A stretch of 64,000 nucleotides of DNA, taken from assembly GCA_045106455.1 (NCBI GenBank), contig JBGCEL010000037.1, forward strand, positions 649 through 64,648. Reading direction: 5' to 3'. Positions 34,857 through 43,023 of the stretch are shown piece after piece. The stretch comes from Gammaproteobacteria bacterium (GTDB lineage: Bacteria; Pseudomonadota; Gammaproteobacteria; Steroidobacterales; JBCCMA01). The position numbers and the translations under genes were made by a program. Within the stretch, counting starts at the first letter, position 1, and the number at the start of each line of letters is the position of its first letter. The notes beneath the pieces were generated by a model. It did no database searches, was not told where the DNA came from, and worked only from the letters and a program-made list of their open reading frames with translations.

Positions 34857-37727
34857 ATGAAAAGGTATCGACGTAACGTCGTCGCTGGCTTGTGTGTGAC
34901 GGCAACCGCCGCCATGAGCTACAGCGCAACAGCCGATGAGAAAGAGCCGAAAGAGGGTATGTCCGCGAAAGAGCTGAGTGCAGCCTGCGCCATGCTCGAC
35001 GATTCCAAGAAGCGTCCGTACATGGATGGTCTGCTGAACTACCTGTTGGTACAGTGCGGACGCACTAATGAGCTTGGCGGCGCAGAAACGGTTCGCCACA
35101 GTTCTGAAAAATCGACCAACCGCATTCCGGGTACGGATGTGGCGGTCAATGACGCCTCGACTGATACGGGCACGGCCCGCACGCAGAACGAAACCTCGCT
35201 TGCGCTTGATCCTGTGACCGGCACGATCTGCTCGGGTTTCAATGATTCAACCTCTGGCGTGACGACGGGGCAGGGCTTCACCGGCTTCGCACGTTCTACG
35301 GACGGCGGCGCCTCATTCACCGACAACGGTGCATTTGATTCGGCCAGCTCCGGTGATCCGAGCATGATCTGGCGTCAAGCCGACGGCAATTTCTACCTGG
35401 CCACGCTGCGCAACGGCGGTCTGGGCATTTATCGCTCATCGGACGATTGCCAAACGATGGACTTCATCGCGCAAGCCTCAGATGGCGGCGATGACAAAGA
35501 GCTCCTCGCGGTTGACAACAACCCCGGCAGTGCCAACTTCGGCCGCATCTACATGGTGTGGACGGACTTTGGTCTGGACGCGTCCATTTACTCGACGTTC
35601 TCCGACGACGGCATCAACTGGTCACCGCAGGTTCGCATCAGCGCACCAGGCGGCGGCGTTCAGGGTGCATGGCCGATCGTTGCCCCTGACGGCACGTTCT
35701 ACGTTTCATGGGTACGCTTTAACGGCGCGACCATCGATATGGAAGTAACGCGTTCGGTTGACGGCGGTAACACCTTCACGCAGACCACCAATCCTTTGAC
35801 CGGTGGTGTAAACCCTGCTGATGCCGCGGCCACGGGCGCTTGCGGTCGTTCTGCATTGAACGGCAACGTGCGTTACCTGGCTTCGCCACAAATCGGCGTC
35901 ACGCCAAACGGCGACCTGCACATTGTGTATAGCTACGATCCTGATAGTGCGAACACCGGCGATACGGTTGACGTGTTCTACCGTCGCTCAATGGATCAGG
36001 GCAACACCTGGATGCCGGAAATTCGTGTGAACGATGATGCTACGCAGACCGATCAGTTCTTCCCAACGCTGAGCACGGGCCCTACGGGTCGTGTGGTTAT
36101 TGCCTGGTACGATCGTCGTCTTGACGAAACCGACAACCTGTTTGTTGATTACTACGCTGCCATGTCGGAAGACGGTGGTGCATCGTTTGGTGTTAACGAG
36201 CGCATTTCGGACGAGTCTTCGCCGATTACGCTGGATCCAAACCTCGCCACTTGCTACCACGGTGATTACGATCAGAGCTTCCAGACGGCTTCTTCCGCTT
36301 TCATCCAGTGGGCCGATGACCGCGGTGTGAATGGTTCGAACGATCCAAACACCTACCTTGACGAAAACGTCTTTGAGCCGGACTTCTTCCTCACCGGCGC
36401 CGATCCGATTGCTTCGGTTTGCGCACCGGATGATGCGGTTTACGGTATCGATGTTGGTCAGGCACTGGGCTTCTCTGATCCTGTGACCATGTCGTCAATG
36501 GGTGTTCCTGCTGGTGCCACCGGCAACTTCAGCGTGAACCCTGTAGCACCTGGTAGCAGCACGGTCTTCACCGTCAGCAACACCGCTGGTGCCGCTGCGG
36601 GCAACTACGTCATCGATGTGACCGGTACGGCGGGCGCCAAAGAGCGTTCGGCACAGCTGGTGCTGGCTCTGTCCACCGACACGCCAGACGCAGCCATGCT
36701 GGCCGCGCCTATCGACGGTGCCACGGAACAGTCCAACTCGCCGTCATTCACGTGGGCCGCTGCGGCTCAGGCTGCGAACTACACGATCGAGATTGCGACG
36801 GATGCTGGCTTTGCCAACATCATTGAAACCGGTACGACAACCGAAACCTCGTACAACGCAACCACGACGCTGCAGCCGCTGACCGAGCACTTCTGGCGTG
36901 TCTCTGCGGACAACCAGTGTGGTGCTGGCGATGTCTCGGCAACGTTCTCGTTCACGACGGCAAACGTAATCTGCATCGTGTCCAACACGGCGATTCCCGA
37001 CAACAGCGCGGCTGGTCTGGACAGTGCCGGTTCGCTGGCAGCCGGCGGCACGTTGACGGATCTCGACGTATCATTGCTGGTCACGCATACGTGGGTAGGC
37101 GACCTCGCCGCGACCCTGACGCATGAAGACACCGGCACGAGCGTGACGTTCTATGATCGTCCTGGCGTACCTGCTACGGGCTTTGGCTGCAGCGGCAACG
37201 ACATCGACGCGACGTTTGATGACGATGCAGCAGTGCCGGTTGAAGACGAATGTCAGGACTCACCAGCCATTGGCGGTACGTTCAGCCCGAGCAACCCGCT
37301 GTCCGTCTTCAACGGTGAAGACCTGGCTGGCACCTGGACGCTGAACATCAGCGATAACGCTGGTGCTGACCTGGGTACGCTCAACGAGTGGTGCCTGTTG
37401 CCTGCAACGAGCGGCGGTTCACCTGATTCAGATGGCGACGGCGTCACTGATGACGTGGACAACTGCACGATGGTGGCCAATGCTGATCAACGCGACACCA
37501 ACGGCGACGGCTTCGGCAACGCTTGCGATGCCGACCTGAACAACGATTGCATTGTGAACGTCGTTGATCTGGGTCTGCTGCGCTCGGTGTTCTTCACCGC
37601 GGACGACGACGCCGATCTGAACGGTGACGGCATTGTCAACGTGGTGGATCTTGGTCTGCTGCGTCTTGGATTCTTCAACCCACCGGGACCGGCGGTTGAG
37701 CCAAACGCGTGCACGCCTGCTCAGTAA
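34857..37727 (+). CDS. secreted BNR/Asp-box beta-propeller protein with P-domain and C-terminal TSP3 + dockerin-like module
   Basis: ATG at 34857 with GGGGAGGG upstream. Signal [26 protein letters not shown]. Five Asp-box-like motifs ([40 protein letters not shown]). Ig/FN3-like segments. Proprotein-convertase P-domain-like [38 protein letters not shown]. C-terminus [78 protein letters not shown]. Confidence 0.85.
   Translation: [956 protein letters not shown]

Positions 37728-43023: not shown

Follow-up and report, generated by a model that had tools for sequence, protein, structure and literature searches.

The 64,000-nucleotide stretch of contig JBGCEL010000037.1 analysed here (the window) comes from an uncultured marine gammaproteobacterium and encodes three secreted proteins that have unrelated passenger parts and end in one shared module, a thrombospondin type 3 (TSP3) repeat joined to a dockerin-like segment with F-hand calcium loops. 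We call the three proteins carriers (a), (b) and (c) and give their modules the same letters.

34857–37727, + strand: carrier (a), with a Sec signal peptide, a BNR/sialidase-like propeller region, a P_proprotein domain and the C-terminal TSP3–dockerin module.
37425–37727, + strand: module (a), with the TSP3 core at 37458–37529, F-hand 1 at 37533–37580, F-hand 2 at 37614–37661 and the tail FFNPPGP...C.
40567–43023, + strand: carrier (b), which derives from one ancestral gene for an FG-GAP propeller with a signal peptide and is now split by two frame changes (~41495–41576).
42835–43023, + strand: module (b), truncated, with TSP3 at 42871–42942, a single F-hand at 42946–42993 and the end FFFNEPG before the stop codon.
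57066–62699, − strand: carrier (c), a 1877-aa secreted protein with TSP3_bac repeats, a middle region, an SGL/NHL-like propeller and the C-terminal module.
57066–57362, − strand: module (c), with TSP3 at 57258–57329, F-hand 1 at 57207–57254, F-hand 2 at 57126–57173 and the tail FFQSPGPS...C.

An earlier reading of the bare sequence (the original prediction) had placed three such modules here on unrelated passengers, on which translations, Pfam and a six-frame scan agree, and had counted two tandem F-hand segments in (a) and (c) and one in (b), as a pattern scan also found. Across all six frames of the window, TSP3 plus F-hand patterns were confined to the three module sites (regular-expression scan). 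Carrier (a) matched the Pfam families P_proprotein (30.8 bits), BNR_4 (15.5 bits, weak) and TSP_3 (19.1 bits), and carrier (c) matched TSP3_bac (188.5 bits over 13 stretches) and SGL (24.4 bits); the signal peptides of both, identified by eye, are typical of the Sec pathway. At the protein level, the modules of (a) and (c) are 56% identical and those of (a) and (b) 69%, with 33 invariant columns. The mean DNA column identity of the three is ~68%, so they are, as had been supposed, old paralogous copies rather than products of a recent duplication. Carriers cluster: three consecutive genes encode them in each of two related loci (L005 and L009), and the window holds three within 28 kb.

Judged by sequence profiles and structure prediction, the module is one folded domain of ~95 residues, in which a TSP3 repeat runs without a linker into a type-I-like dockerin with two F-hands. 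The TSP3 part follows the motif DxDxDGxxDxxDNC...NxxQxDxDGDGxGNxCD with a conserved cysteine pair, C19 and C39 (one disulfide), and each F-hand follows D-x-N-x-D-x-x-x-N-x-x-D and then a helix. No dedicated family for the module exists in Pfam or NCBIfam, and the matches of whole proteins to TSP_3, Dockerin_1 and MtsC-type TSP3 all fell below the cut-offs, TSP_3 giving 19–21 bits on whole carriers. When the isolated modules (a), (b) and (c) were scanned, a check suggested with the original prediction, TSP_3 scored 30.7, 32.4 and 35.6 bits, above its cut-off of 25, but Dockerin_1 scored 9.2, 12.5 and 19.9 bits, below its cut-off of 22.9, which 8 of 20 related carriers passed at 24–35.8 bits. 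A profile built from 122 homologous modules was searched against all PDB sequences. Its first half matched the type 3 repeats of COMP and thrombospondin (3fby, 1.3e-45; E value per repeat against COMP ~1e-8), and its second half the CelS dockerin (2mte/1daq, 8e-8) and about twenty other dockerins; a dockerin-like match was also made to PDB entry 8x39, named 'serine protease'. AlphaFold2 predicted the 105 residues of module (a) as one unit (pLDDT 95.1, pTM 0.84) with helices at 51–58 and 78–86. The best Foldseek match of this model in the PDB was the dockerin 2y3n_B (TMt 0.80, root-mean-square deviation 1.1 A over 51 columns, probability 1.0); all top matches were dockerins, and every match of meaningful probability was a dockerin or a TSP3 protein. 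The division into a TSP3 half and a dockerin half made in the original prediction is thus borne out by Pfam TSP_3, the PDB profile search and AlphaFold2 with Foldseek.

The calcium-ligand positions D42, D46, N50 and D53 of the first F-hand and D69, D73, N77 and D80 of the second are invariant or at least 90% conserved among the 122 sequences, and N44 (N3 of the first F-hand loop) is present in all three window modules; from these motifs we predict about four Ca2+ sites per 95 residues. The tail FFxxPGPSG(xAP) is usually the end of the protein and is absent from classical dockerins. Classical dockerins likewise lack a second feature, a pair of cysteines of which one is residue 6 of F-hand 1 (NNDC) and the other lies in the tail: 30 modules have both, 64 have neither and 1 + 2 are mixed (Fisher p=1.5e-21). 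We read this pair, which (a) and (c) have and (b) does not, as an optional second disulfide that, in about one copy out of three, would staple the tail to the calcium loop of F-hand 1.

The two F-hands of one protein agree at particular variable positions. Among 118 proteins, agreement was 0.75 at position 10 (0.28 after shuffling), 0.42 at position 11 (0.20) and 0.82 at position 17 (0.50), and was raised also at position 18; the other variable positions, 2, 15, 16 and 19, gave no excess agreement between the repeats. Positions 10, 11, 17 and 18 are those that we take to be the cohesin-recognition positions of type I dockerins. The shuffling does not preserve phylogeny, so this agreement is supportive and not decisive. 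In dockerins, the duplicated segments form a symmetric cohesin-binding surface, which permits dual binding (PMC12484212).

The module is a portable element, attached mostly to the C terminus of Sec-exported enzymes and propeller proteins, and many uncultured Gamma- and Betaproteobacteria have it. Among 3,000 candidates of the profile search, at least 1,652 proteins contained the module, most of them from metagenomes or metagenome-assembled genomes (MAGs) labelled Gammaproteobacteria or Pseudomonadota and annotated merely as 'thrombospondin type 3 repeat-containing protein'. The counts over the whole library (47,124 at E<=1e-3 and 2,510 at E<=1e-30) are dominated by giant multi-TSP3 proteins, overstate the composite module and did not serve as a census. 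The passengers are diverse and include an apiosidase-like glycosidase, GH16, a reprolysin-type metalloprotease, peptidases M64 and C25, CotH, a multicopper oxidase, glucose/sorbosone dehydrogenase (GSDH) and propellers of the PD40, BNR/Sortilin, LVIVD and FG-GAP types. The module lies at the extreme C terminus in 62 of 75 complete carriers (83%).

A candidate partner came from the neighbourhoods of the carriers. We clustered the non-carrier open reading frames (ORFs) of 95 module-bearing loci, drawn from GTDB genomes and JGI metagenomes, and recovered a recurring family of ~190-aa proteins in which a signal peptide and a PEP-CTERM/VPLPA-CTERM tail such as VPVPAAVWLFGSGLLGLVGVARRR flank a beta-rich cohesin domain. 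Pfam Cohesin matched five of the nine members scanned, two above the cut-off of 24.1 (L138 at 26.4 and L099 at 24.8 bits) and three more at 12–22 bits; the tails are PEP-CTERM by Pfam and score above the VPLPA-CTERM or PEP-CTERM cut-offs in NCBIfam. The best PDB matches of the family profile were all cohesins (3l8q 1.9e-5, 6kg8 2.5e-4, 6kgc 7e-4). These anchored cohesin genes lie directly beside carriers in 17–19 related loci, on the same strand and mostly immediately downstream. An anchored cohesin on the same strand lies within 1.5 kb of 20 of 109 carriers, and adjoins 15 of the 43 informative carriers, those whose flanks extend 700 bp or more to either side. Two tandem cohesin copies occur in L089, L109 and L125, and in L112 and L131 the cohesin forms part of a long protein. 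The full-module loci contain 22 anchored-cohesin ORFs in 647 kb, and 720 kb of control loci, chosen by TSP3-like matches without the full module, contain no strong member of the family. Modules adjacent to cohesins are 55–64% identical to the window modules.

The unit is also present in a cultured genus. In Aquabacterium, a gene for an 889-aa protein with Peptidase_C25, TSP3 and dockerin lies 30 nt upstream of a gene for a 183-aa protein with cohesin and PEP-CTERM, in two independent assemblies. Protein P0344 of cultured Aquabacterium sp. NJ1 is named 'cohesin domain-containing protein' at NCBI, and a contig from a metagenome run that encodes exactly P0344 has the same dockerin end directly upstream of the cohesin. 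The adjacency of TSP3–dockerin carriers and PEP-CTERM-anchored cohesins is new here. The accessible literature holds no paper that combines 'PEP-CTERM' and 'dockerin', in line with the earlier remark that no such system was known to be characterized in Gram-negative EPS loci. Separately, the cohesins of L138, L009, L089, L118 and L125 match PepA weakly (NF033554, 21–29 bits; cut-off 80), in alignments that reach beyond the sorting tail, and PepA-type floc proteins may contain a cohesin-like domain.

Some carriers are of unusual build. The commonest are ~175-aa proteins in which a ~55-aa domain bearing three SxSYxL motifs stands between a signal peptide and the module; they include P0062, from the same MAG as the window. 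Their ~55-aa domain weakly matches the NCBIfam entry for the CPR pilus tip pilin PamT (26 bits; cut-off 240). In three loci (L142 7039–9634, L144 7981–10525 and L143 303–1561), but not on the contig of P0062, the small carrier ends a conserved three-gene unit, in which it follows a ~450-aa fibre-like secreted protein and a ~210–235-aa protein with an N-terminal hydrophobic segment (identified by eye). The genes upstream of the ~175-aa carriers (445 aa and ~210–235 aa) were considered as cohesins and gave no match. Another group carries, after the module, a ~110-aa CxxCH haem-binding domain (TYTDDVQPIFFNKCAPCHT; L010 601–1563, L081 1–1077, L094 2250–3020), suggesting dockerin-tagged cytochromes. 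One small-carrier contig encodes light-harvesting LHC subunits (L144 18391–18711), so at least some module hosts are phototrophic; our guess is that these are aerobic anoxygenic marine gammaproteobacteria of the OM60/NOR5 type.

Next to the carriers, the window contains the following features.

18093–34535, no strand assigned: exopolysaccharide (EPS) biosynthesis locus beside carrier (a), context outside the module system.
37749–37784, + strand: terminator-like hairpin of 16 pairs with a T-run, between carrier (a) and the VPLPA-CTERM gene.
37976–38572, + strand: small secreted protein, a beta-sandwich by prediction, with a VPLPA-CTERM-like tail (TIGR03370 20.9 bits; cut-off 25.35).
38586–40370, − strand: secreted polysaccharide deacetylase with a PD40 beta-propeller (Polysacc_deac_1 62.4 bits, PD40 69.3 bits).

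The VPLPA-CTERM-like neighbour and the secreted deacetylase had both been named in the original prediction, and the family searches recover them, the sorting tail (TPVPVGAALPLLISAMGTLGFMRRRR) below its cut-off; no exosortase gene was found in the window. The product of 37976–38572 had further been put forward as the partner of the module, a role that the searches do not bear out. It has no Pfam match, its hhalign alignment with the cohesin family covers the tail only, and Foldseek with its AlphaFold2 model (pLDDT 86, a nine-strand beta-sandwich) gave neither a PDB match at E<=0.001 nor a cohesin, the best TM being at most ~0.25; we rejected it as a cohesin. PEP-CTERM PF07589 is found in most of its homologues; in two, a classical dockerin forms the end instead, and one homologue holds two copies in tandem. 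P0275, P0285 and P0291 are among its relatives, the family ending in PEP-CTERM, VPLPA-CTERM or dockerin. Because a dockerin replaces PEP-CTERM in some relatives, the protein behaves as a surface passenger whose family can use alternative anchors, not as a receptor. Its family stands beside no other carrier in ~95 loci, and the strong terminator at 37749–37784 indicates that (a) is not co-transcribed with it.

The EPS locus encodes Wzz-like and tyrosine-kinase-like proteins, Wzy_C, GT2, GT4, a sulfotransferase, a double-GH16 protein, GT1, HAD and, at 475.8 bits, a priming transferase of the WcaJ type. For the chain-length and kinase genes, the best NCBIfam matches are XrtA/PEP-CTERM-system families, below the cut-offs. 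The EPS setting proposed in the original prediction therefore holds for the window, where a real locus lies beside (a), but not beyond it, since no EPS gene family recurs beside carriers in ~95 other loci. Likewise, the profile search for carriers and their neighbourhoods in relatives, another check suggested at the outset, returned widespread carriers and adjacent anchored cohesins but no recurrent EPS neighbourhood. The lack of recurrence means that the EPS adjacency in the window may be incidental; alternatively, it could reflect a general link between exosortase substrates and EPS. The PEP-CTERM protein PepA of Aquincola raises cell-bound polymer/EPS (PMC9850573). Within the locus, the sulfotransferase gene (25401–26330, − strand; Sulfotransfer_3, 81 bits) suggests a sulfated exopolysaccharide. 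A 1146-aa secreted protein with two GH16 domains (26395–29835, − strand) is module-free, and a GH16 homologue in L006 (8516–10261) bears the TSP3–dockerin module.

We propose that the exported module would fold around about four Ca2+ and that its two dockerin helices would bind the cohesin of a small protein that sits at the envelope or in the EPS layer of the cell. A PEP-CTERM/VPLPA-CTERM (exosortase) anchor would hold the cohesin protein, and the binding of cohesin and dockerin would tether otherwise soluble exoproteins to the producer in a cellulosome-like manner; the window's three proteins would use a cohesin encoded elsewhere in the genome. We think it somewhat probable that this mechanism applies to the three window proteins. 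The data show the identity and fold of the domain, its conserved ligands, the variety of passengers and, in relatives, carrier genes adjacent to those of anchored cohesins; from these we infer calcium binding, physical cohesin–dockerin binding and a surface location and, for the three window proteins, the use of a cohesin encoded elsewhere in the genome. The docking tag with a cohesin-like partner that the original prediction had envisaged is partly supported: anchored cohesins beside carriers argue for the partner at the level of the family, but the window contains the dockerin side only. In a wider and more tentative form, which we regard as possible though short of probable, exosortase Proteobacteria would run a minimal, cellulosome-like system of surface display. 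In it, a small cohesin, covalently processed and fixed by its PEP-CTERM/VPLPA-CTERM tail, would be the socket for the TSP3–dockerin, a universal plug on dozens of secreted proteases, glycosidases, oxidases and adhesin-like propellers, and the window proteins would be cargo.

Several observations weigh against cohesin tethering. No cohesin was found in the 64-kb window, either with the family hidden Markov model (filters off, all ORFs of at least 50 aa) or with Pfam, which covered almost every plausible gene; for a few ORFs that are small or truncated at an end, such as 44446–44994 and the region after 62699, the result is that of the cohesin model alone. The window modules belong to a subtype with V at F-hand position 10 and R at position 17; V/A/I/P at position 10 is also found in the closest marine relatives (SGMAG-18 and others), and 0 of 14 informative carriers with these residues have an adjacent cohesin. 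Including carriers with T at position 10 makes this 2 of 16, versus 13 of 27 for the F/Y/S/Q subtypes (p=0.02). Structural symmetry or the history of the subfamilies could also account for the agreement of the two F-hands. The module is internal or near the N terminus in 13 of 75 complete carriers (17%), and in P0084 and P0108 it precedes a true PEP-CTERM signal, so cohesin tethering is not the sole possible use of the module.

These points are shared in part by an alternative in which the module is a calcium-dependent cap for folding or stability, partner-free in the window organism, the cohesin-adjacent subtypes being a specialized offshoot. Such a cap would be rigid and stapled by disulfides, would fold solely in the calcium-rich surroundings outside the cell, and would shield the C terminus and perhaps serve as a spacer. 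The missing cohesins of the window and its V/A subtype, the 13 carriers with the module at other places, four predicted Ca2+ sites with one or two disulfides in 95 residues, and the commonness of ~175-aa proteins that are hardly more than the module are all consistent with such a cap. However, the same composite module, 55–64% identical, stands beside anchored cohesins in many loci, and in a pure cap one would not expect the two helices to retain their agreement at positions 10, 11, 17 and 18. In cellulosomal bacteria, dockerin genes are scattered and lie mostly far from the cohesin genes, which sit at a few sites, so missing adjacency is weak evidence. We consider a partner-free cap unlikely. 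The positions of the module bear differently on the idea that a dedicated machine for export or processing reads it as a C-terminal signal for secretion or sorting and that it does not act as a binding domain. Its place at the extreme C terminus of 83% of carriers and the conserved end PGPSGxAP-COOH would fit such a signal, but the remaining 17% have it N-terminal or internal, it can precede a genuine PEP-CTERM, it lacks a transmembrane segment and its fold is that of a known binding module, and no secretion-system gene recurs among the neighbours of module loci. The module is thus an autonomous domain; we rejected it as a C-terminal sorting domain of the type IX secretion system C-terminal domain or PEP-CTERM type, and regard a sorting role as very improbable.

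In a further alternative, calcium bridges might link the module to the acidic or sulfated exopolysaccharide that the organism itself makes, as a tether to the EPS matrix that needs no protein receptor. Carrier (a) directly follows an EPS locus with a sulfotransferase, the domain is very acidic and has many calcium sites, and PEP-CTERM proteins and EPS retention are experimentally linked in Aquincola (PMC9850573). Yet no EPS family recurs beside carriers, dockerin folds are known as protein–protein modules, and Pfam, the PDB profile search and Foldseek gave no match to a carbohydrate-binding family, which makes this tether improbable. We find it more doubtful still that the 37976–38572 product is the receptor, as a non-homologous or highly divergent stand-in for the cohesin. 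It does occupy the position of the anchored cohesin elsewhere, immediately downstream of (a), has the same type of sorting tail and a predicted nine-strand beta-sandwich, and has one relative with two tandem copies; against this stand its failure to match cohesins, the absence of its family beside other carriers, the two members that end in a dockerin and the terminator that separates it from (a).

Module (b) belongs to a broken gene. As called from GTG 41686, the protein has no signal peptide and is the 3′ part of 40567–43023, the upstream 311-aa part of which supplies the signal peptide; FG-GAP_3 matches the two halves at 87.8 and 125.2 bits. The description of (b) as an FG-GAP protein with the module hence stands for its domains (FG-GAP_3 125 bits) but not for the gene as called. 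Over ~70 nt (41498–41570), the sequence shifts to another frame, in which a perfect FG-GAP motif is encoded, through compensating changes at ~41495–41499 (a T5 run, GAU UUU UGA C) and ~41560–41576 (inside a (GGCA)4 repeat); the T5 site resembles the +1 frameshift site of prfB. The split is identical in assemblies of two sequencing runs (SRR29999183 and SRR29999184), and L001, a third copy, matches the window at 100% identity. A young pseudogene, phase variation and programmed frameshifting would each be a possible reading of the split. Downstream of (b) no trace of F-hand 2 was found, and among 114 module-bearing ORFs no other complete copy with a single F-hand runs to a stop codon.

The system is most readily compared with the type I dockerins and cohesins of cellulosomes (Clostridium thermocellum CelS/Xyn10B, PF00404/PF00963). 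Both have two F-hand loops with helices (fold TM 0.80) on many different secreted enzymes, with repeats that match at positions 10, 11, 17 and 18, and in relatives the dockerin is paired with a cohesin gene. In contrast, the hosts here are Gram-negative Proteobacteria with non-cellulolytic cargo, a TSP3 repeat is fused N-terminally, the PGPSG tail has an optional disulfide and the window copies score below the Dockerin_1 cut-off. The cohesin partner proposed here is a single-domain protein of ~190 aa with a PEP-CTERM/VPLPA-CTERM anchor, whereas cellulosomes use multi-cohesin scaffoldins attached by SLH or sortase. With thrombospondin type 3 repeats (COMP 3fby, TSP-2 1yo8, bacterial OmpA 5wtl, PF02412) the module shares its first 40 residues and the cysteine pair; unlike thrombospondin, which has a long wire and then a lectin-like C-terminal domain, it has one repeat, the last aspartate-rich motif of which enters F-hand 1. 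TSP3 and dockerin repeats have previously been noted together in giant Omnitrophota proteins. An accessory module tightly packed before the dockerin is also a feature of the type II/III X-module–dockerin dyads (2b59, 5k39), and here the two parts are predicted jointly (pTM 0.84), but the accessory part is a 40-residue calcium-binding TSP3 rather than an Ig-like X module.

The cohesin partners resemble PEP-CTERM/exosortase proteins, including PepA (Aquincola/Zoogloea, NF033554), in tails above curated cut-offs and in weak PepA matches; they differ in scores far below the PepA cut-off of 80, and in the window there is no exosortase gene and the only PEP-CTERM-like protein is not a cohesin. Cohesin and dockerin modules outside the cellulosome have been catalogued (survey by Peer et al. 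2009, as cited in PMC5244752), and their function there is described as not known (PMC5244752). Like the NagJ–NagH pair of Clostridium perfringens (2ozn), the modules described here lie outside cellulose degradation; we found no description of a TSP3–dockerin fusion, a PEP-CTERM-anchored cohesin or a two-gene carrier–cohesin unit in the accessible literature. The curated NCBIfam entry NF041540, 'GC-type dockerin domain-anchored protein', likewise takes a dockerin-like domain at the C terminus to be an anchor in non-cellulosomal bacteria, and relatives match it weakly (10–23 bits); all scores are below its cut-off of 29, module (a), the sole window module scanned alone, has no match, and NF041540 represents another dockerin subtype.

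Two other neighbours in the window are of note. Just upstream of the EPS locus, 10306–17706 (− strand) encodes a module-free giant adhesin-like protein of 2466 aa, in which 11 SdrD_B domains (896 bits) are combined with five DUF7507 domains. Beside carrier (c), 56199–57035 (+ strand) encodes a lipoprotein with a TonB C-terminal-like domain (TIGR01352, 59.7 bits), in which a lipobox and a possible second copy of the domain were recognized by eye. A TonB-like lipoprotein adjoins carriers of the window subtype in three loci (the window, L006 6328–6990 and L007 1267–2250), a sample too small to establish an association.

The conserved two-gene unit of carrier and anchored cohesin joins two puzzles, the role of non-cellulosomal cohesins and dockerins and the existence of numerous PEP-CTERM proteins with few assigned roles, and it offers a concrete proposal for how Gram-negative bacteria may retain exoenzymes on the cell or in the matrix. 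As the unit is present in a cultured genus (Aquabacterium sp. NJ1), binding, localization and knock-out work is feasible. The compact, putatively disulfide-stapled TSP3–dockerin may serve as an orthogonal pair for designer enzyme display in Gram-negative hosts, and thousands of entries annotated as 'thrombospondin type 3 repeat-containing protein' could become putative cohesin-docked surface cargo. If the proposal is true, a cohesin socket and a dockerin plug would hold exoenzymes to the cell or within the EPS that coats it.

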